The notes under the pieces were generated by a model. It was not told the DNA's origin. It made no database searches and saw only the letters and a list, made by a program, of their open reading frames with translations. From contig JBIIGJ010000001.1 of the NCBI GenBank assembly GCA_044236455.1, positions 19,888 through 83,887 of the forward strand: a stretch of 64,000 bases of DNA. Direction: 5' to 3'. Shown one piece after another: positions 27,421-47,028 of the stretch (position 1 is the first letter of the stretch; each line of letters starts with the position of its first letter). A program made the position numbers and the translations under genes. The DNA is from Pirellulales bacterium (GTDB taxonomy: Bacteria; Planctomycetota; Planctomycetia; Pirellulales; UBA1268).

Positions 27421-27608
27421 CCGCGCCGATTCCTGACGCGGGCGAGGCTACTTGAACTGGCCCGGTCGCGCCGCTAGTCTGCGAAAGATTTCTGAAAATC
27501 TGCGGGCCGTTGAATTCTTCTTCTGGCGGCGGTCCGCTTGTTTTTCAACCACCAACCACCCCTGAACTGCGCGACCGGTGCGCAGTCCCGTAGAAGAAGG
27601 ACTTTGCC

Positions 27609-31017: not shown

Positions 31018-32101
31018 GATGAGAAGAGTCTATCGCGCATGGGCCGCCACGGCAGCCCTGCTGAGTGTCTTGGCGGCGGGCTGTGGGCCTCCAGCCACGC
31101 CGTCCGCACCGGCCGGCGTGAGCCAGACGCAGCGGGTGAGCCAGACGCAGCGGCTCATGGGAGTGCCGTGGACGATCACGGTTCATGCGGAAACGGCAGC
31201 GGTCGGCGACGCGGCGATTGCCGCTGGGTTTGCCGAGGTGGCACGACTCGAGCGGATTCTCTCCGACTACGATCCCGAGAGCGAACTCTCCCGGCTGTCG
31301 GCACAGGCACCAACGACGGTTCCCGAACCGGTGAGCGACGACCTGTGGCGCGTGCTGACGCGAGCCGTCGAGATTCGTGATGCCACAGGCGGTGCGTTTG
31401 ACCCCACGGTCGGACCGCTGACGAGCCTGTGGCGTCAGGCCCGCCGTTCAGGCCGATTGCCGGTGCCGGACAAGCTGGCCATTGCCCGTGAGTCGGTCGG
31501 GCCGGAGACCCTGCGGCTGGTGCCCGACAACCGCGGGGTGGTGCTTGCGCGGCCCGCCATGCGGCTGGATCTGGGGGGTATTGGCATGGGCTATGCGGTC
31601 GATCGGGTGATCGAAGTGCTGCGGCGTCGCGGTATCGCGGCGGCGATGGTCGATGCCTCCGGCGATATCGCAGTCACGGCGGCCCCACCCGGCACCGCGG
31701 GCTGGAAGATCGCCGTGGCGCCGCTGCGGCCAACGGATGCTGGCGACGGCGACGCCTCGGGCGATCCAGGCGAGCACCTGCTCCTCTCCCATGCTGCGGT
31801 GACGACCTCCGGCGATGCCTTTCAGGCAGTGGAGATCGACGGCCGACGATACAGCCACATCGTCGACCCGCGGACCGGCCTCGGCGTGGCGGGGCCGGCA
31901 GCGGTCACGGTGGTGGCGCCGGATTGCACGACGGCCGACGCGCTGGCCACGGCCGCCAGTGTCCTGGGGCCGGAGCAGGCTGCCGCGGTCATCGCCGGCA
32001 CGCCGGGCTGCGCCGCCAGGTTCATGTCGATGGCCGATGGTCAGCTGCAGTATTCCCGGACTCCCCGCTGGCCTTCCCAGGCTTCCCAGAGTGCCCCCTA
32101 A
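31016..32101 (+). CDS. apbE: FAD:protein FMN transferase (ApbE family lipoprotein)
   Basis: Lipobox 'LAAGC'. ApbE motifs are 'FDPTVGPL', 'LDLGGIGMGYAVD', 'GDIA' and 'TSGD..Q..EIDG.RYSHI.DPRTG'. Confidence 0.85.
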   Translation: MMRRVYRAWAATAALLSVLAAGCGPPATPSAPAGVSQTQRVSQTQRLMGVPWTITVHAETAAVGDAAIAAGFAEVARLERILSDYDPESELSRLSAQAPTTVPEPVSDDLWRVLTRAVEIRDATGGAFDPTVGPLTSLWRQARRSGRLPVPDKLAIARESVGPETLRLVPDNRGVVLARPAMRLDLGGIGMGYAVDRVIEVLRRRGIAAAMVDASGDIAVTAAPPGTAGWKIAVAPLRPTDAGDGDASGDPGEHLLLSHAAVTTSGDAFQAVEIDGRRYSHIVDPRTGLGVAGPAAVTVVAPDCTTADALATAASVLGPEQAAAVIAGTPGCAARFMSMADGQLQYSRTPRWPSQASQSAP

Positions 32102-32348
32102 AGCCCCGAGTCCATCGTCGGGGTAGGTGCGGGTTGCGCAGGATGTGACGGTTCTCCCAAGTTTGCGGGCGAGGCGGCCGATATCTCTGGAGCCGTCGCT
32201 GCGCCTTGGCGTACGTGTTGCGGGCACGGAGTCGGGGGGCACCGTGCCGGGCAGGGCTGCAGCAAGAGCTGTGGCCACACCCCTTGGGCGCAGCGGCGGC
32301 GATTTGAACGACGACCGAGCCAGACACCACCGCCTTGCGGAAGCCCCC

Positions 32349-34493
32349 GTGCCGCGAACTGCCAGACAACTCTGGGTTGCCCTGACGAGCCTCTCGCTCC
32401 TCGCGGGAGGCTGTGCGCCCAAGCAGCCGTTCTACTTCTTTGAGGACGGCGACCTGTCGCACTACGTGGGCGCCGTCCAGAAGCTCGAATATCCCGACAG
32501 CTGCGAGCAGCCGCTCGACGAGTCGGCCGGCACGACTGAGCCGCTCACGCTCTCCAACGCCCGCATCGACCAGATCTGGGAACTGTCCCTGGAGGAAGCG
32601 ATCCGTACGTCGCTGGAAAACGGCAAGGTGCTCCGCAACCTGGGCGGCCGGTTCCAGAGCTTCGGCGGGCCCCGCCCGCAGACCGGCGAACCGGCCGTTT
32701 CGCTTCTCACGGCCCCTTCGGCCACGCCCACGATCTACGACCCGGCGATTGCCGAGACCGATCCTTTCCGCGGTGTGGAAAGCGCGCTGTCGCTGTTCGA
32801 CGCGCAGCTCTCCAGTTCGCTCACATGGGAGCGGCAGAACCGTCCGCAGAACGTAGGTGGCATCATCGGAACGTCGGTGTTCCAGCAGCAGTTCCTCGGC
32901 GACACCGGCAACTGGACGAGCGGCATCCAGAAGCGGACGGCGACTGGTGCCACCGTGGGCTTTGCCAATACGACGCTCTACGACAACAACAACTCGCCGA
33001 TTCGCCAAGATGGAGTGCCCTCGACCTTCACGACGAACTACGACTTCACGCTGAGCCAGCCGCTGCTTCAGGGAGCCGGTGTGACCTACAACCGGATCGC
33101 CGGCCCCGACCCATTTGACAACATCTACGGCCGGCCCCTGTTTCGCGGCGTGTTGCTGGCCCGGATCAACGCCGACATCTCGCTGGCGGAGTTCGAGGCG
33201 GGTGTCCGCAATCTCGTCAGCGACACGGAGCAGTCGTACTGGGAGCTCTATTTCGCCTACCGCAACCTGGAGGCCCGCAAGGCCGGTCGCGATAGCTCGC
33301 TGGAGGCCTGGAGGAAGGTGCACGCCCTCTACGTGGAGCAGTCGCGCGGTGGTGAGGCCGACAAGGAGGCCCAGGCCCGCGAGCAGTATTTCTTCTTCCG
33401 CAGCGAGGTCGAGCAGGCGCTTACCGACGTCTACCGCTGCGAGAATCGAGTGCGATTCATGATGGGTATCAGTGCCAGCGATGGCCGGCTGATCCGCCCC
33501 TCCGACGAGCCGACCACCGCCAGAATTTCCTTCGATTGGCAGCAGTCGCTGGTCGAGACCCTGTCGCGGTCGGCTGAACTCCGCAGGCAGAAGTGGGTCA
33601 TCAAGCAGAAAGAACTGGAGCTGACCGCGGCCAAGAACTTGATCCTGCCCCGGCTCGACCTCGTGGGCCGCTGGCGGTTCCTCGGCATGGGTCAAGAGCT
33701 GATCAACCAGAATTACGCGGCGTACAACGCCAACGGCCGGGATCCTCTCAACGGCACCGATGCCTACTCGACCCTCCTGAGTGGCCAGTTCCAAGAATGG
33801 CAGGCGGGCGGACAGTTCCTCATGCCGCTCGGCTTCCGCCGCGAACTGGCCACGGTCAGGAACCACCAGTTGCAGCTGGCCCGCGAGCGGGCCCGGCTGC
33901 AGGACGAGGAGCTGGAAGCCTCGCACGCGCTGGTCGAGGCGGTGCGGAACATCGACACGAATTTCGCGCTCTCCCAGACGAACTTCAACCGCCGCGTCGC
34001 CGCGGAACGGCAGGTGGAGGCGGTGCAGGCAGCCTATGACGCCGGCACCGTGACGCTCGACCAGCTGCTCGATGCCCAGCGGCGGCGGGCCGAGGCGGAG
34101 AGCTCCTACGCCCGCGCGATCGTCGACTACACCCGCTCCATCTCGCAGCTTCATTTCCGCAAGGGCTCGTTGCTCGAATACAACGGCGTCTTCCTTGCCG
34201 AGGGCCCGTGGCCCGGCAAGGCCTACTTCGATGCCCACCGCCGGGCGCGGCAGCGGGACGCCAGCCTCTACCTCGACTACGGCCATTCCCGTCCCGGCGT
34301 CTTCAGCCGTGGGACGATCACGCAGAACTTCGAGTCGATCGGGGCTGATTCCCCGGTGACGCAGCTCCCGCCACGGGATCCTGCCACGAAGGAAGACTAC
34401 GACGATCAGAACGCCCCGCCGGCCTCGGGCACGACGCCGCGACAGGATGCACGTCCCGGTGTTCCCGAACTGCTGCCGTCACCACGGGGGTGA
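32349..34493 (+). CDS. TolC-family outer membrane efflux protein (oversized, about 715 aa)
   Basis: Two OEP repeats with coiled-coil segments ('LSLEEAIRTSLENG', 'AEFEAGVRNLVSDTEQSYWELYFAYRNLEA', 'AYDAGTVTLDQLLDAQRR'). GTG 32349 gives the lipoprotein signal 'LSLLAGGC'. Confidence 0.8.
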   Translation: MPRTARQLWVALTSLSLLAGGCAPKQPFYFFEDGDLSHYVGAVQKLEYPDSCEQPLDESAGTTEPLTLSNARIDQIWELSLEEAIRTSLENGKVLRNLGGRFQSFGGPRPQTGEPAVSLLTAPSATPTIYDPAIAETDPFRGVESALSLFDAQLSSSLTWERQNRPQNVGGIIGTSVFQQQFLGDTGNWTSGIQKRTATGATVGFANTTLYDNNNSPIRQDGVPSTFTTNYDFTLSQPLLQGAGVTYNRIAGPDPFDNIYGRPLFRGVLLARINADISLAEFEAGVRNLVSDTEQSYWELYFAYRNLEARKAGRDSSLEAWRKVHALYVEQSRGGEADKEAQAREQYFFFRSEVEQALTDVYRCENRVRFMMGISASDGRLIRPSDEPTTARISFDWQQSLVETLSRSAELRRQKWVIKQKELELTAAKNLILPRLDLVGRWRFLGMGQELINQNYAAYNANGRDPLNGTDAYSTLLSGQFQEWQAGGQFLMPLGFRRELATVRNHQLQLARERARLQDEELEASHALVEAVRNIDTNFALSQTNFNRRVAAERQVEAVQAAYDAGTVTLDQLLDAQRRRAEAESSYARAIVDYTRSISQLHFRKGSLLEYNGVFLAEGPWPGKAYFDAHRRARQRDASLYLDYGHSRPGVFSRGTITQNFESIGADSPVTQLPPRDPATKEDYDDQNAPPASGTTPRQDARPGVPELLPSPRG

Positions 34494-34565
34494 GACGACC
34501 GACCCGTATCCACCGGCTCACGCCGGGGGCTTTCATGGGATGTTCATACAAGCCCTGAGCGTGAG

Positions 34566-34583
34566 CGACGGGATTCCCCGTCG
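34566..34583. terminator. hairpin between convergent TolC-like and CPFC-A genes
   Basis: cgacggg-attc-cccgtcg is a perfect 7-bp stem. The T tract is only weak. Confidence 0.3.
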
Positions 34584-34608
34584 TTGATCCAGACTTCCAC
34601 TACGGGTG

Positions 34609-35784
34609 TCAGCGGGCAGGCGGCAGGGCCGCGGCCTCCAGGGCCTGCTGCAACAGGGCGGGATTGTGCGTGCGGATCCGCGCCAGGGCCTGGGACGCCG
34701 CGGGGAGCGGGCAGGCGGTGAGATAGCCGGCCACGGCGCGGCGGATGATCGGATCATCCGCACCAAACGTGTCCCAGAGCCGGGCCACGGCCGCCAGCTC
34801 GTCCCAGGCCTGATAGCGGGCCAGATCAACGGTGGCATCGGCCGCCACGACCGGGCTGGCCAGCAAGGCGGCGGTGGCGCCGATGATCCTTCGGCGCGGG
34901 ATCGTGTCGGCCAGACTTTCCGAGGCGAACCGCAGCGCGGCCAACAGATGCCGCTGATCGAGGGGCCGGGCATTGCGGCCGAACAACCCGCGGTCGTGCA
35001 GGAAATCTAGACCGCGTTCCCCCTCCGCCACGAGCAGACCCGCCAACAGGCCATCGAATCCGGCCCGAAAATCGTCGGCGGGAGCCGCGATGGCCTGCTG
35101 GAGGGCATCGAGACATGTCTGCGAGTCGGCGGGATCTTGTGTGGCGGCGGCGACGCCCAGCAGCAGACCGTAGAGCCCGCGCCGGCGGGCGTCGATCCCC
35201 GGCTCGCTCACCCAGGCCCGCAGCCGGGCGGGGTCGAGCGCATCGGCTGCCGCGCGGACGGTTGCGAACGGCGCCAGGCCAAACTCGGTGAAAGCGTCGG
35301 CGGCGATCGTGGCATTGGGGTGTTCCAGTCGGCCGGCGAACCAACGCAGCCGCTCAGCCGCCGGCCGGTCGATGGCCGGCGCGGCCGCCACGTATCCCAG
35401 CACTATTTCGTCGGCTGCGACCGCCGACCATGTGCGGCGCGTGGTCGCTCCGGCCGCTGCCTCCGTGCCGAAGAGCACGGCCGTACCCGCCACCGGGCCG
35501 ACGACCCGGGCCGGCACGCGGGCTCCAGCAACGGCCGCATCGGCGTTGCCGCGGAGCAGCTGATCGAGGCGAAACTGCTGCGAGCGAAATCCCTGCGCGT
35601 CCGCGGAGTCCCCGCCTTCCGCCTCGCCGACGGCCACGACCGTCGCCTCGTCGCGCCGCTGCGAGAGCGACTGACCGACCGTCCCGCAGAACGGGCAGGC
35701 CTCCGCCGGTGTGGCGGCCCACGGCGTGAGCGCGAGGATGATCAGGCAGCCGGCGTACGCCGCGGCCTCGCGCGGAATGGTCAT
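34609..35784 (-). CDS. secreted protein of unknown family, predicted mature N-terminus CPFC (paralog A)
   Basis: Signal peptide 'MTIPREAAAYAGCLIILALTPWAATPAEA|CPFCG'. Alignable over about 300 aa to 39915-41519, ending '..YLTACPLPAASQALARI'. Its ATG overlaps the AIM24 stop (TGATG). Confidence 0.8.
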   Translation of the reverse strand: MTIPREAAAYAGCLIILALTPWAATPAEACPFCGTVGQSLSQRRDEATVVAVGEAEGGDSADAQGFRSQQFRLDQLLRGNADAAVAGARVPARVVGPVAGTAVLFGTEAAAGATTRRTWSAVAADEIVLGYVAAAPAIDRPAAERLRWFAGRLEHPNATIAADAFTEFGLAPFATVRAAADALDPARLRAWVSEPGIDARRRGLYGLLLGVAAATQDPADSQTCLDALQQAIAAPADDFRAGFDGLLAGLLVAEGERGLDFLHDRGLFGRNARPLDQRHLLAALRFASESLADTIPRRRIIGATAALLASPVVAADATVDLARYQAWDELAAVARLWDTFGADDPIIRRAVAGYLTACPLPAASQALARIRTHNPALLQQALEAAALPPAR

Positions 35785-36467
35785 CACTCGGAATCCCATC
35801 CCCCGGCAGCCATTCTTGCGCGTTCCTTCTGCATCCGGGCCCGCCAGTAGGGAACCGTGCACAAGAGCAGCTTGCCCGTCCCCTCGTAGACGTAGGCGAG
35901 TTTCTGGCCCGACAGCCAGTAGCTGACGAAGGACTTGGCAGGTCGCTTGACCCGCATGGAAATCCCCTGCGTCCGCGCGATCACGAAGGGGCCGTCGGTG
36001 ACCAGGCGGTCGTTTTCGAGTTCCACCTCGTGGACCGGGCCATCGACCGAGAGCACGACCTGTCCGTTGCCCTTGAGAGCCGTCTTGTACCAGAACAGGC
36101 CCTCACCGGCACGGAAGGCGGTGAGCATCCGCTCGCGGTGCACCGAGAGCTTGACCTTGCCGTCGCTCGCCCAGAAGCACCGCGTGTCGAGCACCCAGCG
36201 CTCCCCCGGCGCCACCTTCATCAGGTGGTAGCCGCCGAGGCTGGAATCGAGGTAGACGCTGCCGGTGCCGCTGTAGCGGGGCCGCAGCAGTGACTCGTCT
36301 GAAAAGAGTGATACCCACCAGGCCTTGAGCGTGGGCCAGGGCACGTCCATCGTGATCGCGCCGTGCATATGGTTGAGGGCGCCCCGCTCGGTCCGCACGT
36401 CGTCGCCTTCGAGGGCGACCTTCACCCACCGCATCCCCTCGGAATGTTCGACCTTAAATGTCGCCAT
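35784..36467 (-). CDS. AIM24 family protein (TIGR00266/DUF124)
   Basis: 'MATFKVEHSEGMRWVKVAL..DDVRTERGALNHMHG' and 'GEGLFWYKTALKGNGQVVLS' have the AIM24 beta-rich pattern. Start at ATG 36467 inside track ORF 35784..36944. Confidence 0.8.
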   Translation of the reverse strand: MATFKVEHSEGMRWVKVALEGDDVRTERGALNHMHGAITMDVPWPTLKAWWVSLFSDESLLRPRYSGTGSVYLDSSLGGYHLMKVAPGERWVLDTRCFWASDGKVKLSVHRERMLTAFRAGEGLFWYKTALKGNGQVVLSVDGPVHEVELENDRLVTDGPFVIARTQGISMRVKRPAKSFVSYWLSGQKLAYVYEGTGKLLLCTVPYWRARMQKERARMAAGGWDSE

Positions 36468-37782
36468 CGATGGAGACCTCCGGGCCGCGGGTGATGCCCC
36501 CCTTTGTCCAGTCGCAACTCCACCCCGGGAAGGCGATCTGCGGATAGGGATCGGGTTCGATCGGGGCGTCCGACTGGTGCACGATGTCGAACTGCCGGTC
36601 GGTGCGAATTCGGCCGAGCCTGAAAAAGCGGGTGCAGTGCTGGGTCTTCGGATCCAGCCGCACGGTGCCCCCCGGCCCCTCGAACTCGAGCCCTTCGCGC
36701 ATCGCCGCCCGCACGGCCTGAGTGTCGAGTGAACCGGCCCGTTCCACGGCCTCCCGCCAGAGATGCACCAGCCCCCACTGAGGCTCCAGCGGATCGCCCG
36801 TGACGCGGTCGTGGCCAAACTCGCGGCGGAAATCGGCCACCCAGCGGCGGTTTGTCTCGGTCGGCAGGCTCTGGAAATAACACGATGCCGCCAGATGCCC
36901 GGCGACGTTCTCGGGCAGCAGATTCCGAAGTTCGTCCTCGGCAATGCTCGTCGACACCACCGGCAGCTTCTCGGGATCGACTCTCGCGGCCGCCAACGCG
37001 TTGAACCAGCCGATGTTGCTGTCGCCGTTGATCGTGCTGAGCACGCACTCGGCCCCTGACGCGCGGATCAGGTTGACCACCGGCTCGAAATCCTTGTGCC
37101 CGAGCGGGAGATACATCTCGCCGGCCGGCCGCATGCCTTTCGTGGTCAGGTATTTCTTGGCCACGAAATTCGCCGTCCGTGGAAAGACGTAGTCGGAGCC
37201 CAACAGGAAGATCTTTTTCTTGCCCCCGCCCGCGGGGCTTGCCAGCCAATCGATGACCGGCAGAACCTGCTGGTTGGGCACCATGCCGCCGTACACCACG
37301 TGGGAGGACGACTCGTTGCCCTCGTACTGCACCGGGTAGAAGAGCAGGCGGTCGCGCTCTTCGAAGAGCGGCACGACTGCCTTGCGGCTCGAACTCGTCC
37401 AGCAGCCAAACACGGCCGCAGCGCCCCAGTCCAGCAGTTCGCCGGCCCGTTTCGGGTAGAGGTCGGTCCGCGACTTAGGGTCAGGCCCCCAGACCTCGAT
37501 CTGCCGGCCGAGCAGTCCCCCGGTGGCGTTGATCTGTTCGAACGCAAACAGTTCCACGTCGCGGAGCGACGTTTCGCTGATGGCCATGGTGCCGGTCTGC
37601 GAGTGGAGCAGGCCGACCCGGATCGGCTTCCGGCCGGCCGGTACGCCCGTCGGCATGCAGCCGACGAACACAAAGGGGGCAAGACCGCGTGCGGCGGCCA
37701 GCGTGGCCGCGGCACCGGCGTGCCTGCCGAAATTCCTTCGGGAAATGCGGCGAGTGAGTCCCGTCACCTGTCGTTGCCCCAT
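36454..37782 (-). CDS. periplasmic urea/short-chain-amide binding protein homolog (UrtA/AmiC/FmdD family), Tat signal
   Basis: 'SRRNFGRHAGAAATLAAA' twin-arginine leader. Family motifs are 'GTMAISETSL', 'FGCWTSSSRKAVVPLFE', 'FYPVQYEGNE', 'GSDYVFPRTAN', 'NGDSN' and 'EPDPYP'. Confidence 0.85.
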   Translation of the reverse strand: MGQRQVTGLTRRISRRNFGRHAGAAATLAAARGLAPFVFVGCMPTGVPAGRKPIRVGLLHSQTGTMAISETSLRDVELFAFEQINATGGLLGRQIEVWGPDPKSRTDLYPKRAGELLDWGAAAVFGCWTSSSRKAVVPLFEERDRLLFYPVQYEGNESSSHVVYGGMVPNQQVLPVIDWLASPAGGGKKKIFLLGSDYVFPRTANFVAKKYLTTKGMRPAGEMYLPLGHKDFEPVVNLIRASGAECVLSTINGDSNIGWFNALAAARVDPEKLPVVSTSIAEDELRNLLPENVAGHLAASCYFQSLPTETNRRWVADFRREFGHDRVTGDPLEPQWGLVHLWREAVERAGSLDTQAVRAAMREGLEFEGPGGTVRLDPKTQHCTRFFRLGRIRTDRQFDIVHQSDAPIEPDPYPQIAFPGWSCDWTKGGITRGPEVSIDGDI

Positions 37783-37785
37783 CGC

Positions 37786-38577
37786 CTACTCCTCGACCAT
37801 GTGCTTGTAGAGCGCCTCGAACGGCTCGGGAGTGACGCTCACCTCGCCCCGAAACGGATGGTCCATAGCGGCGATCAGAAAAATCATCGTGCCGAGATAG
37901 GCCGCGAGCAAGCCGCCGAGCAGCAGGTGGGTGATGAACCTCATGTCGAAGAGCCAAACCATGGCGATGTTGATGACCGCTCCCAGGATGACGACGTACC
38001 ACATCACCGGCGGGATCGCCGTGTTGACGGAAAACAGCCGCATGCGACGGTGCTCGAGGAAGGTGTTGAACTGCCGCAGCGCCTCGGCGTGCAGGATTTC
38101 CTGCGCCGGTGTCGCCGGCTGGAAGTCGAGGAGCTTCTCCTGGAAGGCTTGCACGCGGATCGAACCATCGACCGGCACGATCCCCTGCCGCTGCAGCGGC
38201 CAGGCATACTTGATCACATACCGCGTGTAGTCGCGGAGGATCCAGCGGAGATTCTGGCCATAGGGATCGGGGTAGCGGGAGACGTCTTCGTAGAGCGCCG
38301 ACAGCGCCGCGGCCTCGTGGGTGACGTTCGCGCTTGTGTCGGAGGCATTCTGGTAGGCGGTGACCGCGATCAGGCCGAGGAGCAGGCCGTAGAACACGCA
38401 GAAGCACGAGAGCACGTAGCCCACGATGTCGTTGGCACCGCGGGTGTTCTTGACGAACTGCCGCAGGATGGGCCGTAGAAAGATCAGCCCCGCCCAGTAG
38501 AAGCCGACGAACACCGCGATCATCAGGATCGCGAAGGTTTCGGTCGGCAGATCGTAGACCCAGTAAAAGTTCTGCAT
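37786..38577 (-). CDS. DUF4239 domain membrane protein
   Basis: TM helices lie at both ends, with a central 'EAAALSALYEDVSRYP..' region typical of DUF4239. Start at ATG 38577 (MQNFYWVY). Confidence 0.75.
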   Translation of the reverse strand: MQNFYWVYDLPTETFAILMIAVFVGFYWAGLIFLRPILRQFVKNTRGANDIVGYVLSCFCVFYGLLLGLIAVTAYQNASDTSANVTHEAAALSALYEDVSRYPDPYGQNLRWILRDYTRYVIKYAWPLQRQGIVPVDGSIRVQAFQEKLLDFQPATPAQEILHAEALRQFNTFLEHRRMRLFSVNTAIPPVMWYVVILGAVINIAMVWLFDMRFITHLLLGGLLAAYLGTMIFLIAAMDHPFRGEVSVTPEPFEALYKHMVEE

Positions 38578-38658
38578 GGTTCCGTGCCGGGGCGACGCCG
38601 CGGCGGCCGCCGCCAGCGTGGGACCGATGCTACCAACGGGATTTTGCCGCTGCACGTG

Positions 38659-39216
38659 TCACTCGACGGCCTCTCCGTCCAGGGCGTAGATCGCCAGGTG
38701 CCGGCCGTCCGGCCCCCGCAGTTCCTCCACCCGGAAGGTACCGGTCACGGCCACCGGCCGGATCGAAAAAGAGGCTGTTTTTCCGGGGATCATGCGGACC
38801 ACAACGCAGTCGTGGAGCAGGGCGCCGGGCCCGAAACAGCACTCCATGTTGTCGCGGACGAGCACGAACTGGGTCAGGCCGGTCTGCTGGAAGCTCGGCA
38901 GGATGTAGCCGCGGATCCGCACGCGGCTGGTTTCGAGGGCGGTCACTCGCTTCGGCAGCAGGTCACGGGAGAACGGGTCCCCCTTCTTGAGGTCGAGTTT
39001 GATGTCATCAAACGAGATGTCGCGGAGGGCGGCCGGAGACGCCTTCGCGGCCGTGGCTGGTGGCGCCGGCTGGGGCTCGGCGGCAGGCGTGCCGGCAGGC
39101 GACGGCCGTACCTCGGCAGGAGTTCCGCACCCGACCAAGCAGCAGGCCATCACGACGAGGCAGAACCGTTGCTGGCGGTGCGCAGGCAAAACCGCGACGC
39201 TATCTCGCAAAGGCAT
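38659..39216 (-). CDS. DUF3299-like lipoprotein
   Basis: Lipobox 'CCLVGC'. The C-terminal 'VRIRGYILPSFQQTGLTQFVLVRDNMECCFGPG' resembles the DUF3299 'GF.vP....EFLLVP..gaC.H.P' core. Confidence 0.7.
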   Translation of the reverse strand: MPLRDSVAVLPAHRQQRFCLVVMACCLVGCGTPAEVRPSPAGTPAAEPQPAPPATAAKASPAALRDISFDDIKLDLKKGDPFSRDLLPKRVTALETSRVRIRGYILPSFQQTGLTQFVLVRDNMECCFGPGALLHDCVVVRMIPGKTASFSIRPVAVTGTFRVEELRGPDGRHLAIYALDGEAVE

Positions 39217-39901
39217 CCTCGAGGTGGTAGAGCACGCCGCCATCCAGGCCGGGCGCGCCCATGGGGCGGATGACGAACCTGCCAGCGATCTTGATAAGCC
39301 GGGGCGAGAAATCGATTCCGGTGGGATAGCCTGGGTCCTTCAACTGCACGAGCACTCGATCGGTGATCTTGGGATTGCCACCGAAGCAGCAGTCGCCCTG
39401 GTCGCGCACGAGCAGGAATTGCGTGATGCCCCGTTGCTGCTTGCCCGGATACATGTATCCCTTCAGCAACACGTTGCGGCCGTCCATCGCGCGGGCGGTG
39501 TCGGGCACCGTGCCGGCCGGATCGCCAAGCAGTGGCTGGAGCATGCCGTAGTTGAGCCGTTCGTAGCCTGCCGGCAGTTCCGCGATGTAGGCCCGCGAGA
39601 GGGTCACGAGGCCGCCGACGAGCGACAGCGATGAGACCACGATCGCCCCGATCGCCAGCGGACGCCCGGTGAACTCGTCGGCCCGCTGGGAAATCGTGCG
39701 GTAGGCCAGGCCGCCGAGCACCATGCCCAGGATCGGCACGGCGGCCAGCGACCAGTCGAGAAATGCCAGAGGCGACAGGAGAGCCAACACTGCGGCGGCG
39801 ATCGCGGTGCCGGCAACGGCGCGGTAGCGGCCTTCCACGTCCTGACCATCGGTGCGGTCGGGCGGTTCCTGTCCGGCGGTATCGAAGAGACCTGCTGGCA
39901 T
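39200..39901 (-). CDS. membrane-anchored DUF3299-like protein (paralog of 38659-39216)
   Basis: Two N-terminal TM helices, then 'VLLKGYMYPGKQQRGITQFLLVRDQGDCCFGGNP', which aligns with the neighbouring gene. Confidence 0.7.
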   Translation of the reverse strand: MPAGLFDTAGQEPPDRTDGQDVEGRYRAVAGTAIAAAVLALLSPLAFLDWSLAAVPILGMVLGGLAYRTISQRADEFTGRPLAIGAIVVSSLSLVGGLVTLSRAYIAELPAGYERLNYGMLQPLLGDPAGTVPDTARAMDGRNVLLKGYMYPGKQQRGITQFLLVRDQGDCCFGGNPKITDRVLVQLKDPGYPTGIDFSPRLIKIAGRFVIRPMGAPGLDGGVLYHLEDAFAR

Positions 39902-39914
39902 AGTGCGTGTGCTG

Positions 39915-41519
39915 TTAGCGTACGGACGGGCCCGCCGCGCCTGCCCGCAGCCTGCTCCGCGAGAAGAGTGCGATCAGCAGCACGATCACCGCCCAGATGG
40001 CCCACTTCACGACGGTGGAGGAGCGGGCTGCCGGTGTGGGGGAAGCGGCCGCGGGACGGGCCGTCGTCGGCCTCGAGGGGTCGATGCCGGGGGCATCGTC
40101 GGTGGCCTCTTCGTCCGCCAATACCGCCGGAATCCGGGCTGCGATGGCCGCCTCGTCTTCCACGGCTTCCGTTCCACCGCCGGCCGGCGTCGATGCTGCG
40201 TTGGGCGAGGTCGCGGTTCCGGGGCTGGAAGCCGTCGTCCGGGCCATCGTCGGGTCACCCGGATCGCCATCGGATGACCCGCTTGAGTCGCCCCCGGTCG
40301 TCGTGCCGCCGGGCTTGGCCCCAATCGCCCCTGCAAAGGCAGCCAGCGTGGCGGCGCGGCGGACCGCCTCCGGATCGATCTTTTCAAGTCTGGCGATGGC
40401 CTCGGCCGCCTGCGGCAGCGGGCAGGCCCGCAGGTAGTTCACGATCGGTTCACGGACGAAGATGTTGTCGGCCTCGGCCTTCTCGAAGAGTTCCACGAGC
40501 CGGTCGATCGCGGACCAGTCCTGCCAGCGGGCGAGATCCGCGATCACCAGATCGGCCAGCTTTGGCTCCTCCAACAGCAGCCGCAGCGACTTAAGCACGC
40601 GGTCCTTCGGCACGCTCTCCGACTCCTCGCCGAGAAACCGCAGCGCCATGACCGCGGCGTAGGTTTCGGTGAATGGGATATCGCGGCCGCGCCGGTTCAG
40701 GAACAGCTCGTCGACCAGGTCGAGCCCTTCAGGACCGCGCAGCGTCACATAGCAGGCGATCAGGGCATCCAGGCCGCTACGGACTTCCGCCTTCTCCGGT
40801 CCGAGGCCCCGGTTGGCAAGGATGCCGCCGATGCGGTCGGCGTCGGTTTTTGTGCCGCAGGCACCGAGCATGGTGGCATAGAGCCGCCGCCGGTTGGCCT
40901 GTACCTTGGGATTCTCGATCCACTCCAGCAGCTGCGTGGGATCCATCCGGTCGGCGAGGCCGCGGACGTCGGCATAAGGCGCAACGGCGAACTCGTCATA
41001 CGCATCGCGGGCCAGCGTCTCATCGGGGTCTTCCAGGTGCCGTTGGAAGAACGCCAGGCGGTCGGGCCCTTTGTCCGGAAGCGAGGACAGCTTCTTGAGA
41101 TAGTCGACAGCCCGCTCGCTCACCGGGATCGGGCTCGACCAGACGAGCTTCGGCGGCTCGATGCCCATCAGCAGGAAGAGCGTGCCCACCGGCTTCTCCT
41201 CCAGGAGAATCGTCTCGATGGGCGTGCCGTCCGCCCCGGCGTGCCCGGCCTCCGCGATGAGGTCGGCGCCCTTGAGCACCTCGACGACGGCGAACTTCCC
41301 CTTCGGCAACGGACCCTCGGCGCGGGGCGAGAGGGCTCCCGCCGGCGGAGGTTCCACGAGCCGGACGATCGCGGCCACCTGGCTCTGGGCGATCTCCTGC
41401 GCGAAGGTGAGCGACACGGCCGAACAGAACGGACAGGCCGATGCCGGTCGGGGCTGGCCGACGAGCAAGCCCAAGCCGAGCATGAGCAGGATCACACGGT
41501 CGACACACGAGGTTCTCAT
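39915..41519 (-). CDS. secreted/anchored protein of unknown family, predicted mature N-terminus CPFC (paralog B) with low-complexity linker and C-terminal TM helix
   Basis: 'MRTSCVDRVILLMLGLGLLVGQPRPASA|CPFCS', then a conserved body ending '..YLRACPLPQAAEAIARL', a Gly/Ser/Thr/Pro/Asp linker, and 'VVKWAIWAVIVLLIALF'. Start at ATG 41519. Confidence 0.8.
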   Translation of the reverse strand: MRTSCVDRVILLMLGLGLLVGQPRPASACPFCSAVSLTFAQEIAQSQVAAIVRLVEPPPAGALSPRAEGPLPKGKFAVVEVLKGADLIAEAGHAGADGTPIETILLEEKPVGTLFLLMGIEPPKLVWSSPIPVSERAVDYLKKLSSLPDKGPDRLAFFQRHLEDPDETLARDAYDEFAVAPYADVRGLADRMDPTQLLEWIENPKVQANRRRLYATMLGACGTKTDADRIGGILANRGLGPEKAEVRSGLDALIACYVTLRGPEGLDLVDELFLNRRGRDIPFTETYAAVMALRFLGEESESVPKDRVLKSLRLLLEEPKLADLVIADLARWQDWSAIDRLVELFEKAEADNIFVREPIVNYLRACPLPQAAEAIARLEKIDPEAVRRAATLAAFAGAIGAKPGGTTTGGDSSGSSDGDPGDPTMARTTASSPGTATSPNAASTPAGGGTEAVEDEAAIAARIPAVLADEEATDDAPGIDPSRPTTARPAAASPTPAARSSTVVKWAIWAVIVLLIALFSRSRLRAGAAGPSVR

Positions 41520-41642
41520 GGCCCCTAGTCTAGCCGGAAACGTCGCGGCCACGCACCGCCGGGCGGTGAATGGCACCGGCCGCGGGGTGGGAGCCGGGGC
41601 CAGTCCCATCGCTGGCGCTCCGCACGTGTCTGCGCACGAAAG

Positions 41643-41662
41643 CCCCCGGCGTAAGCCGGGGG
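41643..41662 (-). terminator. GC-rich hairpin 22 nt downstream of the ABC permease stop (terminator or attenuator candidate)
   Basis: cccccggc-gtaa-gccggggg is a perfect 8-bp stem. On the minus strand it is followed by CTTTCGTG, a weak U tract. Confidence 0.4.
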
Positions 41663-41683
41663 ACAAGCTCCGCACGCACGGTG

Positions 41684-43009
41684 TCACGACGACAGCCACT
41701 TGGCGACGTCGGTGCGGTAGGCGGCCAGGGCGGGAAGAAGGGCCGCCAGGATGGCCAGCACCACCAGGAACGGCACAAGGAGCAGTTCCGCCCCCGGCGC
41801 CGCCGAGAAGATGCTCGCCGAGACGCCGGCGTTGGTCGTGATCAGCGGGGCGATGGCCCCCACGAGCAGGTGCCCGAGCAACCACCCGGCCAGCCCGCCG
41901 CCGACGGCCAGCAGCACCGCCTCGATGAGCACGACCGCCAACACGTGCGACCTTCTGGCGCCCAGCGCCCGCATGATCGCGACGTCGCGGCTGCGCTCCA
42001 GCGACGAGCCCACCATGCTCACCAGGATGCCGATGGCGGAGACGAGCACCACCAGTGCCGTGATCAACAGCAGCAGCAGTTCCAGCGGCCGCACGAAAAG
42101 GTCGAGCAGTTGACGGATCTCGGCGATCGGCAGGGCGGCCTGTCCGTCACGGCCCTCGTTGATCGCGGTCCGCAGACCCATGGCCGTCAATTCCGGAGGC
42201 AATCCCGGCAAGGAGGCCGTGTCGAGCAACAGCGCAGTCACCTCCCGCTGCGCGAAGGGAAGCGGTGTGGGCGTGTTGCCTCCGTCCGATGGCGGTTCCT
42301 CTTTCCGCTCGTCGCTCTCCGCTCCCTCCACCGGCTTCGCGTGGCCGTCCTGCAGATAAAAGCCTTCCATGTTGACGAACACGCCGCGGTCGACGGGCGT
42401 GTCGGTCCGCGCGAGGATGCCGGTCACCATGAAGGGGTCGTGCACCTTGCCGTCGTCGGCGCCGTGCGTGGGCGCGAACGGATCGCCCACCTTGAGCCCG
42501 AGTGTGGCGGCCACCGTCGCTCCCAGCACGCCGCCGAAAAACTCGTCGTTACGAAAGTTCCGCCCGGCTGCGAACGCAAACGGCCGCCCGTCGCCGACCG
42601 TGAGCCGGTCGAAATAGGCCGTGTTCGTGCCGATCACGCGAAACCCGCGGAAGTAGTCCCCCATGCAGATTGGCACGGCGGTCTTCGTGCTGGCGGCGAA
42701 CGTGCCGTCCACGCCATCGGGCCGCTCGGCCGCGGGCAGAAACTGCTGGTAGAAGTCCCAGGAAATGTTCTCGATCGGCTTGCTGATCAGGTAGACGCTG
42801 TTGAGCACCAGCTGCAGCGGGCTCCCCTTCGCGCCGACGATCATGTTGTAGCCCAGGCCGGAGCCCGACTCAAAAGCCTGCTTCACGATGCCGCCGGTCA
42901 CGAGTGTGGCCACCACCAGCGCGACGCCGAGTGCCAGCGACAAAGCGGTGAGCAGGCTGGTGAGCAGCCGTTGGCGGATGTTCCGCCAGGCGATGCCGAG
43001 GAGGGTCAT
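41684..43009 (-). CDS. ABC transporter permease, FtsX/MacB type
   Basis: 'IAWRNIRQRLLTSLLTALSLALGVALV', a large periplasmic loop, and a C-terminal FtsX domain ('RSRDVAIMRALGARRSHV'). 4 TM helices. Confidence 0.9.
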   Translation of the reverse strand: MTLLGIAWRNIRQRLLTSLLTALSLALGVALVVATLVTGGIVKQAFESGSGLGYNMIVGAKGSPLQLVLNSVYLISKPIENISWDFYQQFLPAAERPDGVDGTFAASTKTAVPICMGDYFRGFRVIGTNTAYFDRLTVGDGRPFAFAAGRNFRNDEFFGGVLGATVAATLGLKVGDPFAPTHGADDGKVHDPFMVTGILARTDTPVDRGVFVNMEGFYLQDGHAKPVEGAESDERKEEPPSDGGNTPTPLPFAQREVTALLLDTASLPGLPPELTAMGLRTAINEGRDGQAALPIAEIRQLLDLFVRPLELLLLLITALVVLVSAIGILVSMVGSSLERSRDVAIMRALGARRSHVLAVVLIEAVLLAVGGGLAGWLLGHLLVGAIAPLITTNAGVSASIFSAAPGAELLLVPFLVVLAILAALLPALAAYRTDVAKWLSS

Positions 43010-43695
43010 GGGTGATGCACCGTGGCTGCGCGGTTGAAGTCTTCGAGCCGCACGCGGCGCGGGAACTGCCCGGCCACGTCCGCGGCGTGCGTCACGATCA
43101 GGAGTGCGACGCCCTGCTCTGCACAGGTGTTTCGCAAGAGGTCGATCACCTGCTGTTGATGGGCGGGATCGATGCTCGCCGTTGGCTCATCGGCGAGCAC
43201 CGCCCGGGGCCTGTTGGCGAGGGCCCGGGCCACGGCCACCCGCTGTTGCTGGCCCACGCTCAGCTCAGCCGGCTTGTGAGCGAGCCTGTGCCCGAGCCCC
43301 ACCGCGTCGAGCAGTCGCACGGCCCGGTCGCGGTCGGGGCGGCCCGATCCGAACGACATGGCCACGAGCACGTTCTCGAGCGCCGTGAAACCGGGCAGCA
43401 GATTGAACTGCTGGAAGACGAGGCCGAGTTTGTCGGCCCGCATGCGGTCGCGGCGGGCCTCGTCGAGCCGGGCGATGTCGATGCCGTCGACGATCACGCG
43501 GCCGGCATCGGGCCGCATGATCCCGGAGATGACGTTGAGCAGCGTCGACTTCCCGGAGCCGCTGCGGCCCTCCAGGGCGCAGTGCTCGGCGTCGGCGAGT
43601 TGGAACGCGGCGATGTCGAGGATCGGCACCTGCTCGCCGCCCGGCATCGTGAACGACTTGCGGACGTCGTGGAGTTCGAGAACGGGTGTAGCCAT
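43006..43695 (-). CDS. ABC transporter ATP-binding protein (MacB/LolD-like)
   Basis: Walker A 'GRSGSGKST', signature 'LSVGQQQR' and Walker B 'VLADEPT'. Its stop overlaps the permease start (ATGA). Confidence 0.9.
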   Translation of the reverse strand: MATPVLELHDVRKSFTMPGGEQVPILDIAAFQLADAEHCALEGRSGSGKSTLLNVISGIMRPDAGRVIVDGIDIARLDEARRDRMRADKLGLVFQQFNLLPGFTALENVLVAMSFGSGRPDRDRAVRLLDAVGLGHRLAHKPAELSVGQQQRVAVARALANRPRAVLADEPTASIDPAHQQQVIDLLRNTCAEQGVALLIVTHAADVAGQFPRRVRLEDFNRAATVHHP

Positions 43696-43757
43696 GGACA
43701 CAATCGTAGCCGTTGGGGGCGGTCGGTGGTCAAAAACCGATGTTTTCGCGGGCGGAT

Positions 43758-43787
43758 TGAGCGGCTGCCGCAGGGCGGTGTATATTC
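43758..43787 (+). promoter_or_regulatory. candidate sigma70-type promoter for gap
   Basis: TTGAGC (43758-43763), 18-nt spacer, TATATT (43782-43787). Pattern match only. Confidence 0.3.
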
Positions 43788-43880
43788 CTCCGCCCCTTGT
43801 GTCGGTCGTCCGCCCGCAGCGTTGTGGGGCGGCAGATTTTCGACGACGTCCCGCCTCAGTCACGCCTCAGGAGATTCGCC

Positions 43881-44897
<1,017 letters not shown>

Positions 44898-44918
44898 ACA
44901 AGGGGCTCTCGCTGACTG

Positions 44919-44947
44919 TGGAAAAAGCCTCCCCCAGACTTTTTCCA
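44919..44947 (+). terminator. inverted repeat downstream of gap (weak terminator candidate)
   Basis: tggaaaaag-(11 nt)-ctttttcca is a perfect 9-bp AT-rich stem, 22 nt after the gap stop. Confidence 0.3.
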
Positions 44948-45105
44948 TCAGGATGAACGAGTCCACTTGAAGCCCGTCGCTTCCGTCGCGGCTGCCTTTT
45001 CGCACGTTTTCGCAGAATGCTGCTGGCCGGCCGGTGATTTCCGGAAGGCTGTGCGAGCGCTTGACAAGCGGCAGCAGACCCCCCAAATGGGTGTATAGTG
45101 GGGGT

Positions 45106-47028
45106 ATGTGTGGAATCGTCGGAGTGGCCTGCGCGGATGCTGGACGGGTTATGCCTGCCGTACGGGGCATGGTCCGTGCGATCGTGCATCGTGGGCCTGA
45201 CGACGAGGGCATCGAAACGCTTGTGCTGCACACAGGAGATAGCGGGGCCCGTCGTGACGCGGCATTTGGGTTCCGCAGGCTTTCCGTGCTCGACCTGACG
45301 GCCGCTGCCCACCAGCCGATGGCTGATCCCGCGACTGGCGACTGCCTGATCTTCAATGGTGAGATCTACAACTTCCGCGACCTGCGGACGCGGCTGGCGT
45401 CTGCTGGCGTGGCATGCCGCAGTTCGGGTGACACGGAGGTGCTACTGAAGTCGCTTTCGCTCTGGGGCGAACGGGCGCTCGAGGACGTCGACGGCATGTT
45501 CGCGTTGGCGTTTTATCAGTCCAGTACCCGACGCATTCTCCTGGCCCGGGACCACCTGGGCATCAAGCCGCTCTATGTGGCGGCCCTGCCGGGGGCCGTG
45601 GTCTTTGGGAGCGAGGTACGGAGCGTCCTCGCTTCTGGGATCGTGTCGGACGAACTCGATCCGGCGGGCATTGCGACCTTCCTGGCCTACGGCGCGCCCC
45701 AGGATCCGCTGACCATCCACCGCCACATCCGTTCGTTTCCCGCGGGGGCGTGCGCGTGGGTCAGCCTCGATCCCACGGGAAATCCGGTCATCGGGCCGGC
45801 CAGGCGGTATTGGCGGTTTCCGGCTGTCGCGGCGGAGGGTGATCGCGACGCGGTCGCATCGCTTCGCGGCCTGCTCGAGGCAGCCGTGCGGTCGCAGTGC
45901 GTGGCCGACGTGCCGGTGGGTGTGTTCCTGTCGAGCGGCATCGATAGCGCCGTGATCGCGGCGCTGGCCAAGCAGCATGCGGCCACGTTTCGGACGTTGA
46001 CCGTGGGATTCGACGGTGTTGCAGCCCGTGATGAAAATGAGTTGGCGGCCGCCACGGCGAGCAGTTTGGGCGTCGAGCACGAGCGGATCATCCTAGGTCT
46101 CGACCGGATTGGCGCGTCGTGGGATCGCTGGATCGCGGCTGCGGATCGGCCCAGCATCGACGGACTCAACACGTTCGTGGTGAGCGGGGCGGCGCGGCAG
46201 TCAGGAGTGACGGTCGCCCTGTCGGGCATCGGCGCCGACGAGATGTTTGGCGGCTATTCGCTGTTCCGGTCGGTCCCGGAGATGTATCGGTGGCTGCGGC
46301 CGGTCGCGGGGGTGCCCGAGGGCGTGCGGCGGACCGTTGCCAGCGTGGCGTTTGCACCCCTGCGACAGGGCCGTCGTGATCGGGCGGTCGAAATCGTGGC
46401 CGGCAGCAGGTCGCTGCTTGATGTCCTGCTCGGCGTGCGGCGGATTTTCACGACGTCAGGTCTTGAGAAGCTCGGCGTTCGCGGCCGTGATCTCGGGTTG
46501 ACGTCGCAGTATCTGCCACCGGCAGCCCGCGACACCTTGGCCGACGGTCATGGGCTCGACGCGTTTCATGTCATCTCGCGCGCGGAGGCCGTGCTCTACT
46601 TGGGCAACACGATCCTCAAAGATGTCGATGCCAACAGCATGGCGCACGGACTGGAGGTGCGGGTGCCCTTCCTGGCCCGCGGGCTGGTGGACTACGCGCA
46701 GTCGCTACCGTCGCGAGTGATCGCCCCGGCTGGCAAGCCGCTCAAGCACCTGCTTCGGGAGGCGGTTCGCGACCTGCTTCCGGAAGAGGTGTTCGCTCGG
46801 CCGAAGAGGGGTTTTTCGCTGCCGATCAGCGAATGGATGGCGGGCTGCCTGCGGGACCGGTGCGAGGCGGCCGTGGCCGAGGCGGCCCGGTGTCCGGTGC
46901 TCGATGCCGCTGGCGTTCGGGGCGTCTGGGATCGCTACATGCGGGCCGAGGTTCGCACGCACGCGGAACGCCCGCTGTCGATCGTGGCGTTGGGCAGCTA
47001 CCTCCAGGGCCTGCGCGGCGGGTGCTAA
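45106..47028 (+). CDS. asnB: asparagine synthase (glutamine-hydrolysing)
   Basis: N-terminal nucleophile 'MCGIVG' and 'FNGEIYN'. The synthetase domain has 'FLSSGIDSA' (the SGGxDS PP-loop variant). Confidence 0.9.
   Translation: MCGIVGVACADAGRVMPAVRGMVRAIVHRGPDDEGIETLVLHTGDSGARRDAAFGFRRLSVLDLTAAAHQPMADPATGDCLIFNGEIYNFRDLRTRLASAGVACRSSGDTEVLLKSLSLWGERALEDVDGMFALAFYQSSTRRILLARDHLGIKPLYVAALPGAVVFGSEVRSVLASGIVSDELDPAGIATFLAYGAPQDPLTIHRHIRSFPAGACAWVSLDPTGNPVIGPARRYWRFPAVAAEGDRDAVASLRGLLEAAVRSQCVADVPVGVFLSSGIDSAVIAALAKQHAATFRTLTVGFDGVAARDENELAAATASSLGVEHERIILGLDRIGASWDRWIAAADRPSIDGLNTFVVSGAARQSGVTVALSGIGADEMFGGYSLFRSVPEMYRWLRPVAGVPEGVRRTVASVAFAPLRQGRRDRAVEIVAGSRSLLDVLLGVRRIFTTSGLEKLGVRGRDLGLTSQYLPPAARDTLADGHGLDAFHVISRAEAVLYLGNTILKDVDANSMAHGLEVRVPFLARGLVDYAQSLPSRVIAPAGKPLKHLLREAVRDLLPEEVFARPKRGFSLPISEWMAGCLRDRCEAAVAEAARCPVLDAAGVRGVWDRYMRAEVRTHAERPLSIVALGSYLQGLRGGC

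Follow-up and report, generated by a model that had tools for sequence, protein, structure and literature searches.

A 64,000-nt window of contig JBIIGJ010000001.1 from a Pirellulales bacterium (positions 19,888 to 83,887; GC ~67%) carries nine open reading frames (ORFs) between positions 34609 and 43695, all on the minus strand and numbered here from gene 1, at 43695, to gene 9, at 34609. We conclude with high confidence that this region consists of two nested, separately evolved modules: a core made of genes 1-5 and 9, and a cassette of genes 6-8 inserted in it. From sequence comparison we are also highly confident that the core represents the Pirellulales form of the Zrg/PA4063-PA4066 type of MacB-like ABC system. 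The cassette, judged by its sequences and gene order, is a module in its own right and a facultative insert in the core. Overall, the explanation that we favor as probable is a Zrg-type metal-handling core combined with an independent cassette. Gene content, homologies, synteny, the composition of the loops, and predicted folds are results of the analysis; the metal substrate, the N-terminal processing, the contacts between proteins, and the promoters are inferred from them.

An earlier reading of the same letters by a model (the sequence-only reading) had presented the nine genes as a single, translationally coupled, candidate undescribed system. The nine minus-strand genes, their coordinates, and all junctions were recomputed exactly with the start codons chosen there. 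Its domain calls were borne out by Pfam and NCBIfam scans of the nine proteins, and its assignments to membrane or periplasm agree with a hydropathy scan. The description as an undescribed system does not apply to the core, which is a variant of the known Zrg/PA4063-66 type, and the notion of a single system fared worse, as described below.

Conservation of gene order

Scanning one genome per GTDB species with a profile of the CPFC family, to which the products of genes 3 (CPFC-B) and 9 (CPFC-A) belong, returned 80 loci, all of them from freshwater Planctomycete metagenome-assembled genomes (MAGs; Pirellulales or Planctomycetia), and gene order in these loci was read by tblastn with the nine proteins. 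Most of the sufficiently long loci show the full order 1-9. Nine show the order 1-2-3-4-5-9, with genes 6-8 missing, and three have genes 1-2 inverted away from genes 3-9 (the loci named with this inversion are L016, L022, L146, and L160). Neighborhood mining, which the sequence-only reading had proposed as a check of synteny, found the gene order in ~50 species-level genomes, a recurrence beyond chance. Within the freshwater clade, the flanking genes for GAPDH, a TolC-like OEP protein, and ApbE are as syntenic as the cluster itself, which implies that the clade is shallow and that its synteny alone says little about function.

Deeper contexts were fetched with distant B-type CPFC members and comprised 80 metagenome loci and four long contigs, with GC contents of 46-69% and differing flanks. 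Of 48 evaluable distant loci, 41 have the pair of ABC genes upstream in the same orientation; genes 4 and 5 lie downstream of the B-type CPFC gene in 46 of 52, and a CPFC-A gene comes directly after gene 5 in 15. Genes 6-8 were found in 0 of ~80 distant loci. In a neighbor-joining tree of CPFC-A, the cassette-free loci fall on scattered branches inside the freshwater clade, indicating that the cassette was gained near the base of the clade and lost several times. These absences and losses, together with the standalone occurrence of a similar cassette in Alphaproteobacteria, contradict the claim of one nine-gene system. We propose that a single freshwater lineage acquired the cassette, at a site between genes 5 and 9, and that repeated losses followed.

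The data were weighed against the possibility that the region encodes one integrated nine-gene machine, in which the UrtA-like, bestrophin-like, and AIM24 proteins are working parts of the ABC/DUF3299/CPFC system, for example in ligand-sensing or ligand-gated import. Such a machine would fit the co-directional arrangement of the nine genes, the overlaps at junctions 7-8 and 8-9 in the window, the retention of the nine-gene order in ~50 species-level genomes, and the constant position of the cassette between genes 5 and 9. However, the distant loci that bear the core all lack the cassette, as do scattered members of the same clade, and the similar cassette in Alphaproteobacteria occurs without any ABC, DUF3299, or CPFC genes. 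The equally syntenic GAPDH, OEP, and ApbE flanks also show that synteny in this clade reflects shallow divergence as much as function. We regard an integrated machine as improbable. The composite of two modules has to accommodate a finding that weighs against it, namely that the cassette has been retained inside the operon in ~50 species and is tightly coupled to gene 9 in the window, and there may be some functional integration of the cassette with the core. The broader lesson is that separate modules can make up a gene string even when it is tightly packed and conserved within one clade. One MAG, JBEIQP01, holds both a full nine-gene locus (L032) and a second contig with genes 7-8-9 (L038), which might reflect duplication, heterogeneity among strains, or faulty binning.

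The junctions agree with the division into core and cassette: 6-7 and 7-8 are tight, and a gap is invariably present at 5-6. Genes 1 and 2 share an ATGA overlap at 43006-43009, and this overlap of the gene 1 stop with the gene 2 start is kept in most related loci. A 164-nt intergenic gap (41520-41683, minus strand), which contains a GC hairpin and a -10-like hexamer, separates genes 2 and 3 in the window, and a gap is present here in all but one of 88 related loci. Genes 3 and 4 are separated by 13 nt, and genes 4 and 5 overlap by 17 nt when the ATG at 39216 is used. The gap between genes 5 and 6 is 81 nt, or 3 nt if the GTG at 38655 is the start, and a gap is found in 39 of 39 related loci. 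Genes 6 and 7 are 3 nt apart in the window (median 1 nt over 47 loci), genes 7 and 8 overlap by 14 nt (the same -14 nt in 57 of 58 loci), and genes 8 and 9 share a TGATG overlap at 35782-35786. The proposed translational coupling is thus upheld at junctions 1-2, 3-4, 4-5, 6-7, 7-8, and 8-9; it fails at 2-3 and would apply to 5-6 only with the alternative GTG.

The ABC core and its Zrg-type relatives

Gene 1 (43006-43695, 229 aa) encodes the ABC ATPase of a split MacB-type transporter (ABC_tran, E 3e-31) and shares 41% identity with PA4064. Gene 2 (41684-43009, 441 aa) encodes a MacB-type permease of the PA4065/ZrgC subfamily with four transmembrane (TM) segments and matches to FtsX and MacB_PCD. 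The permease aligns over its full length with P. aeruginosa PA4065 (32% identity, E 7e-50) and with a Phaeobacter homologue (35% identity, E 2e-57) whose operon is adjoined by a Fur-family gene. It has a large periplasmic domain between TM1 and TM2, with a variable acidic loop at about residues 216-252. Solved chains of MacB, LolC/E/F, and FtsX match the permease only in its C-terminal FtsX part, at no more than 44 bits. The NCBIfam equivalog models tell the same story: the LolCE model gives 32.5 bits (cut-off 362) and LolD gives 188 (cut-off 308), and the scores of the permease and the ATPase with the Dev and FtsX models are far under the cut-offs. The statement of the sequence-only reading that this is not a MacAB, Lol, Dev, or Urt system is upheld by these distances, and by the lack of an adaptor and of UrtBCDE.

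Genes 4 and 5 encode two DUF3299 proteins, each with a 'CCFG' motif. The gene 4 product (39200-39901) has an N-terminal DUF4190-type membrane region with three hydrophobic segments, and the gene 5 product (38659-39216) is a lipoprotein with the lipobox LVG-C. The two domains are 34% identical, confirming the duplication noted earlier. The gene 5 domain alone falls just under the Pfam cut-off (20.1 vs 22 bits), and a profile built from 25 diverse gene 4 and gene 5 domains (alignment A4) confirmed the assignment to DUF3299; all 25 members match PF11736. With E 9e-9, this profile matches the crystal structure 4HSP. The structure can be equated with PA4066, because its aligned sequence, used in tblastn, returned at 100% identity the DUF3299 gene from the DUF2796-ABC-DUF3299 operon of P. 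aeruginosa. The DUF3299 domains contain one invariant Cys, and it aligns with the Cys of 'GACIH' in PA4066. The sequence-only reading had stated that DUF3299 proteins accompany MacB-like pumps in Zur-regulated operons; the end-to-end alignment of the permease with PA4065 and the Phaeobacter homologue and the match of the DUF3299 profile to the PA4066 structure bear out that statement.

Two side observations concern these proteins. Three of the 25 DUF3299 domains weakly match DUF1980_C (best E 0.0016), which may mark a distant kinship of the two families. On a 425-kb record deposited as a P. aeruginosa 'plasmid' (L164, CP109682.1:39117-49422), the DUF2796-ABC-DUF3299 operon adjoins oprG, trxA, and a gene for a ribosomal-protein methyltransferase. 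Its DUF3299 gene and the 4HSP chain are 100% identical, and the record may be chromosomal.

The order ATPase, permease, DUF3299 is common to the window, to PA4063-66, and to the Phaeobacter operon. Further common traits are one gene each for the ATPase and the 4-TM permease, a DUF3299 gene downstream of the permease gene, the lack of a MacA-type adaptor, and a metal signature in the form of His-rich periplasmic sequence. In contrast to its relatives, the Planctomycete core is without DUF2796 (ZrgA/PA4063) and DUF2607 (ZrgD); we detected no DUF2796 among the nine proteins, nor in the Pfam lists of loci L081-L083 and L167. The Planctomycete DUF3299 protein is duplicated and both copies are membrane-tethered, and two CPFC/HEAT proteins have been added, of a family that the proteobacterial operons do not have. 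His-rich sequence, where present, lies in the permease loop and occurs in only some Planctomycete lineages, and no Zur box or Fur-family gene was found at the Planctomycete core. The trio of ATPase, permease, and DUF3299 protein is thus ancient and reaches the Planctomycetes, where its accessory proteins come from another family, a very large one. These natural variants provide testable handles on which parts bind metal and which are interchangeable.

MacB-type transporters are normally outward-acting. Both PA4063-66 and zrgABCDE are regulated by Zur or zinc (PMC11481552, PMC9817125, PMC9820375). The Zrg operon has been read as a zinc uptake system in Vibrio, while a 2024 study in Pseudomonas proposed pyochelin-cobalt export (PMC9817125, PMC9820375, PMC11481552). 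The literature on these operons assigns no role to the DUF3299 member (PMC9817125, PMC9820375, PMC11481552).

The core could also be an efflux pump for a metallophore or toxic compound, working with the neighboring TolC-like protein while the DUF3299 and CPFC proteins replace the adaptor. PA4064/65 has been modeled as a MacB exporter, and export-type phenotypes have been reported (PMC11481552), and the proposed export of pyochelin-cobalt by PA4063-66 provides an analogy. The TolC-like OEP gene (32127-34493, plus strand) is convergent with the cluster, lies immediately downstream of it, and is syntenic in the freshwater clade, and no adaptor gene is present; scans of the cluster and of further window ORFs gave no HlyD-family match. 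However, the OEP gene is on the opposite strand and is not linked to the core in distant loci, and no metallophore biosynthesis genes lie nearby in the window. We consider an efflux pump of this kind unlikely, although it differs from the favored Zrg-type metal-handling core mainly in direction and in the form of the substrate. With MacAB-TolC, the core shares the FtsX and MacB_PCD fold family and a TolC-like gene next door, whereas the window ATPase is not fused to the permease, there is no MacA adaptor, the MacB similarity is confined to the C-terminal FtsX part (44 bits), and the OEP gene is convergent and unlinked in distant loci.

Apart from this comparison, the OEP ORF encodes 788 aa with the OEP domain confined to residues 472-676 behind a long N-terminal extension, and together with the ApbE gene (31016-32101) it is syntenic across the freshwater clade. 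A role in anti-phage defense was considered and rejected, as PADLOC gave just generic P-loop matches for the ATPase.

CPFC proteins and the case for metal handling

The two CPFC proteins are encoded by gene 3 (CPFC-B; 39915-41519, 534 aa, with a weak HEAT_2 match and features from the hydropathy scan) and by gene 9 (CPFC-A; 34609-35784, 391 aa, with no membrane anchor and no Pfam or NCBIfam match). They are 31% identical (E 4e-47), which confirms the duplication proposed earlier. A search of 1.84 billion representative proteins with the CPFC profile gave 2,353 clusters at E <= 1e-3 and 786 at E <= 1e-30. The matches listed split evenly between an A-type of ~390 aa and a B-type of ~500-600 aa, many of the latter with a C-terminal TM segment. 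With thousands of members and no annotation, the family is a clean target for biochemistry.

The CPFC motif is present in 378 of 388 family sequences, with its first Cys at a median position of 28. Alanine occupies position -3 in 245 and position -1 in 326 of these 378 sequences, while position -2 is variable and often charged. An A-x-A pattern before the Cys is of the signal peptidase I type rather than a lipobox, so that the mature protein should start with Cys-Pro-Phe-Cys. Signal peptidase I cleavage of the CPFC proteins therefore appears to fall directly ahead of this motif, which would leave a free N-terminal Cys. In CPFC-A the predicted signal peptide and mature N-terminal CPFC are followed by an NTR/TIMP-like beta-barrel (residues ~40-123) and a HEAT/ARM solenoid (residues 126-385). 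CPFC-B has, in order, a signal peptide, the mature N-terminal CPFC, a beta domain, a HEAT solenoid, a low-complexity linker, and a C-terminal TM anchor.

The AlphaFold model of CPFC-A is confident, with a predicted local distance difference test (pLDDT) score of 90.7, and places the beta domain at residues 49-123; the N-domain modeled alone scores 79. With this N-domain, the top 10 Foldseek matches are all of the NTR/TIMP type (E 0.04-0.09, TM score about 0.5). The top matches are the NTR domains of meteorin and PCOLCE, agrin NtA, and the C345C domains of C3/C4/C5; TIMP-1 comes lower, from rank 24. CPFC-A has no sequence match in the PDB. A specific fold for the full-length protein was considered and rejected, since Foldseek retrieved just generic ARM/HEAT repeats from the PDB.

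The free N-terminal Cys of TIMPs chelates the zinc of the protease, and NiSOD carries an N-terminal Ni-hook. The proposed CPFC hook recalls both. Like the TIMPs, CPFC-A has an N-domain that retrieves NTR/TIMP-type OB barrels and a mature chain predicted to start with Cys. It differs in that the motif is CxxC and not CxC, in that the barrel lacks conserved disulfide partners, and in that the domain is fused to a HEAT solenoid with no linked protease gene. No conserved Cys was found in the barrel among family members, hence there are no TIMP-type disulfide partners. Some members hold no Cys beyond the two of CPFC, and the only other frequent Cys is C358 ('ACPLP'), which was rejected as a disulfide or metal partner because many members without it keep CPFC. 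We interpret the motif as a self-contained N-terminal dithiol, either a metal hook or a redox pair, and its genomic company favors the metal hook.

Several CPFC genes lie outside the core context. Standalone CPFC-A paralogues in L020, L025, L040, L051, and L076 are monophyletic, 53-57% identical to gene 9, and located outside ABC/DUF3299 clusters; in long loci (match at ~10001-11150) they adjoin an ORF for an HD-like cytoplasmic protein and a peptidase S46 gene. A pairing of CPFC with DUF3299 outside the operon was rejected, as these standalone paralogues are not beside DUF3299. Locus L163 (10031-12490) contains two tandem CPFC-B-type genes with no ABC pair or DUF3299 genes detected nearby, and L094, L101, L102, and L124 also have no ABC pair upstream.

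Independent evidence for metal handling comes from the permease. In the distant loci, the loop between the 'NMEGF..HAKP' and 'PLP.EQREVTA' blocks of the periplasmic domain, just before TM2, is hypervariable and acidic, and in 16 of ~50 distant orthologous permeases it is His-rich, with 17-48 His. The loop of L081, for example, has 32 His in 110 residues. ZnuA and ZrgA carry the same kind of His tract. The sequence-only reading had raised metal trafficking as a hypothesis, and these His-rich loops in orthologous permeases give it independent support. Also counted in favor of a metal link are the Zur/zinc regulation of PA4063-66 and zrgABCDE, the CPFC motif behind its A-x-A site, and the invariant Cys of DUF3299. 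On this analysis we have moderate confidence that the core handles a transition metal. His-rich loops were recorded in L081 (8442-9950), L082 (8195-9796), L116, L142, and others, with loop lengths of up to 211 residues.

In the mechanism that we propose as most likely, the core would use ATP hydrolysis in the way of other MacB-type transporters, to set its periplasmic domain in motion. The substrate shifted by this work, between the membrane and carriers in the periplasm, would be a divalent transition metal (Zn, Co, or Ni-like) or a small metal chelate. Capture would take place at the acidic permease loop, which is His-rich in many relatives, and exchangeable ligands would be provided by the N-terminal 'hook' of CPFC and by the conserved DUF3299 thiols. 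At the inner membrane, TM helices would anchor one DUF3299 protein and a lipid the other, and the two CPFC proteins would take the place of the His-rich ZrgA/PA4063. Transport may run in either direction, as uptake or as export. A more far-reaching and tentative combination is that the CPFC proteins are a new class of periplasmic metallochaperone, with a free N-terminal CxxC hook on a TIMP/NTR-like barrel that is mechanically loaded or unloaded by a Zrg-type MacB transporter via DUF3299, and that the cassette is a new binding-protein-dependent gated channel or sensor found from Alphaproteobacteria to Planctomycetes. If true, the CPFC hook would offer the first mechanistic picture of metal handling by a family disputed as 'importer or exporter'.

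A number of results weigh against metal handling by the core. The loop of the window's own permease contains a single His, and the freshwater clade as a whole is without a His tract; the loop is acidic, and not His-rich, in this clade and in marine low-GC loci. No His-rich tract was found in the 388 CPFC proteins or the DUF3299 proteins examined, and PA4066 is reported to show no evident zinc binding (PMC11481552). A palindromic Gibbs sampler run on 39 upstream regions identified no general Fur/Zur operator, with the limit that the planctomycete Zur box is not known. The neighboring genes are housekeeping (GAPDH here and SmpB at distant loci), and the promoter seems constitutive. For the CPFC hook, the AxA-C cleavage is a prediction and the first Cys may carry a lipoprotein-type modification, and the NTR/TIMP similarity is weak (E 0.04-0.4, TM score about 0.5). 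A scan of the upstream regions for AT-rich inverted repeats gave a clean site in L123 only. That site, ~64 nt upstream of gene 1, is a perfect 8-1-8 palindrome, TAAATCATTATGATTTA, that resembles the boxes of the Fur family (Zur/Fur) and overlaps the likely -10.

Some of the same observations would suit a different role, in which the core does not handle metal and is a mechanotransducing ABC module that, like FtsEX or LolCDE, acts on an envelope protein by controlling or moving it. The CPFC proteins would then be the cargo, or else TIMP-like factors that regulate or inhibit a cell-wall hydrolase or a zinc metalloprotease of the periplasm. MacB-type transporters work in the periplasm, the best structural matches of the CPFC N-domain are all of the NTR/TIMP type, the predicted mature N-terminus is a Cys as in TIMPs, the gene 5 product is a lipoprotein, and the neighbors are housekeeping genes with no metalloregulator site found. 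Yet no protease or hydrolase gene is linked in any locus, and the TIMP-type disulfides from N-terminus to barrel are absent, the barrel having no conserved Cys. The LolC/E and FtsX equivalogs are far under their cut-offs, whereas PA4065 matches over its full length, and the His-rich loops of relatives point to metal ions. A mechanotransducing role appears doubtful to us, and metal handling by a Zrg-type core is the reading that we retain.

Cassette, transcription signals, and neighboring genes

The cassette encodes a bestrophin-like membrane protein with four TM segments (gene 6, 37786-38577; PF14023, formerly DUF4239, E 4e-65), a Tat-exported and probably lipidated periplasmic binding protein similar to UrtA/FmdD (gene 7, 36454-37782; Peripla_BP_5, E 1e-129), and an AIM24-family protein without a signal peptide (gene 8, 35784-36467; E 1e-32). 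Relatives of genes 6 and 8 were sought in one annotated collection, of plasmids. The highest-scoring full-length match of gene 6 was in Haematobacter massiliensis (36% identity, 161 bits), and the best match of gene 8 was the gene immediately downstream of it (37% identity, 164 bits, with the next match at 94 bits). In the Haematobacter locus, a gene for a TAXI-type binding protein lies divergently upstream of this bestrophin-like/AIM24 pair. The same three-gene layout occurs in Paracoccus, in a Hyphomicrobiaceae MAG, and in a 709-kb JGI contig, with different flanks each time, while more distant PF14023 genes stand alone.

A PF14023 gene, a PF01987 gene, and an orphan binding-protein gene are grouped both in genes 6-8 of the window and in loci L169 and L173-L176. 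The Alphaproteobacterial loci share with the window a PF14023 gene followed by AIM24 within ~10 nt and an adjacent gene for an orphan binding protein. They differ in that their binding protein is of the TAXI/NMT1_3 type and divergently transcribed, whereas that of the window is UrtA-like and encoded between the other two genes. The Alphaproteobacterial arrangement looks like an undescribed conserved three-gene module. The divergent TAXI/NMT1_3 gene, the PF14023 gene, and AIM24 within ~10 nt were located at L169:2908-5497, L173:3118-5485, L175:2880-5491, and L176:2799-5492.

The gene 7 protein has the SRRNFGR motif of the twin-arginine translocation (Tat) pathway and a lipobox. Its closest solved structures are 8TG1 and the cyanobacterial UrtA, with AmiC more distant, and it scores under the UrtA equivalog cut-off (TIGR03407, 425.5 bits vs 492.75). 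Its sequence points to a binding protein of the urea/short-amide type. With UrtA, FmdD, and AmiC it shares the Peripla_BP_5 domain and the nearest structures, 8TG1 and UrtA; it differs in its combination of Tat signal and lipobox, its location between bestrophin-like and AIM24 genes, and the lack of UrtBCDE. The sequence-only reading had described a solute-binding protein without a cognate permease, and no UrtBCDE-type genes were found among the window ORFs scanned. Since the cassette is independent of the core, the partner of the orphan binding protein is probably the adjacent bestrophin-like protein. Most likely the binding protein works with this neighbor and not with the ABC pump. An independent module that crosses phyla explains the 'orphan' binding protein and offers the first genomic context for bacterial AIM24 and bestrophin-like (PF14023) proteins, which would also be their first functional context if the proposal is true. 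We found no papers on the function of DUF4239, on AIM24 together with bestrophin, or on DUF1980.

Sequence elements suggest at least two transcription units. A -10-like hexamer, TACGAT (43703-43708), and a 7-nt spacer to the gene 1 ATG occupy positions 43696-43708 on the minus strand, and a -10-like TAGACT at 41527-41532 lies 7 nt before the gene 3 ATG. A TANNNT hexamer is present 5-9 nt upstream of the gene 1 start in 20 of 32 related loci, compared with 0-1 loci for genes 2, 4, 7, and 8. The gene 3 hexamer is found in nearly all true gene 3 orthologues (TAGAAT, TAGACT, TACACT, TACAAT, or TAAAAT). TACGAT is a candidate promoter for a leaderless or near-leaderless gene 1 transcript. Together, the hexamers, the gap between genes 2 and 3, and the inversion of genes 1-2 in some loci suggest that there are two near-leaderless transcripts, one for genes 1-2 and another that starts with gene 3. 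AT-rich conserved blocks upstream were considered as operators and rejected, as they read better as -35/-10 promoter elements. At 43735-43755 on the minus strand, the inverted repeat GAAAAC-N3-6-GTTTTT abuts a TTGAC -35-like element upstream of gene 1. The repeat occupies the corresponding position in L001, L004, L014, L016, L021, L022, and L028, where the arms are conserved and the spacer varies in sequence and length.

The hairpin in the gap between genes 2 and 3 (41643-41662) has the sequence CCCCCGGC-TTAC-GCCGGGGG and a predicted stability of -18 kcal/mol. It was rejected as a terminator after gene 2 because neither the hairpin nor its position is conserved, a strong hairpin being present in just 24 of 98 loci. 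In a consensus scan, terminator-like sites were no commoner than in shuffled sequence. An Rfam scan of positions 33000-45500 gave only sub-threshold chance matches, with no Rfam family in this gap.

The cluster is bounded by the divergent GAPDH gene (43797-44897, plus strand) and by the convergent TolC-like OEP gene. A type III glutamine synthetase gene (27594-29780, plus strand) and an asparagine synthase gene (45034-47028, plus strand) lie a few kilobases from the cluster and its urea/amide-type binding protein, a proximity that may be coincidence.

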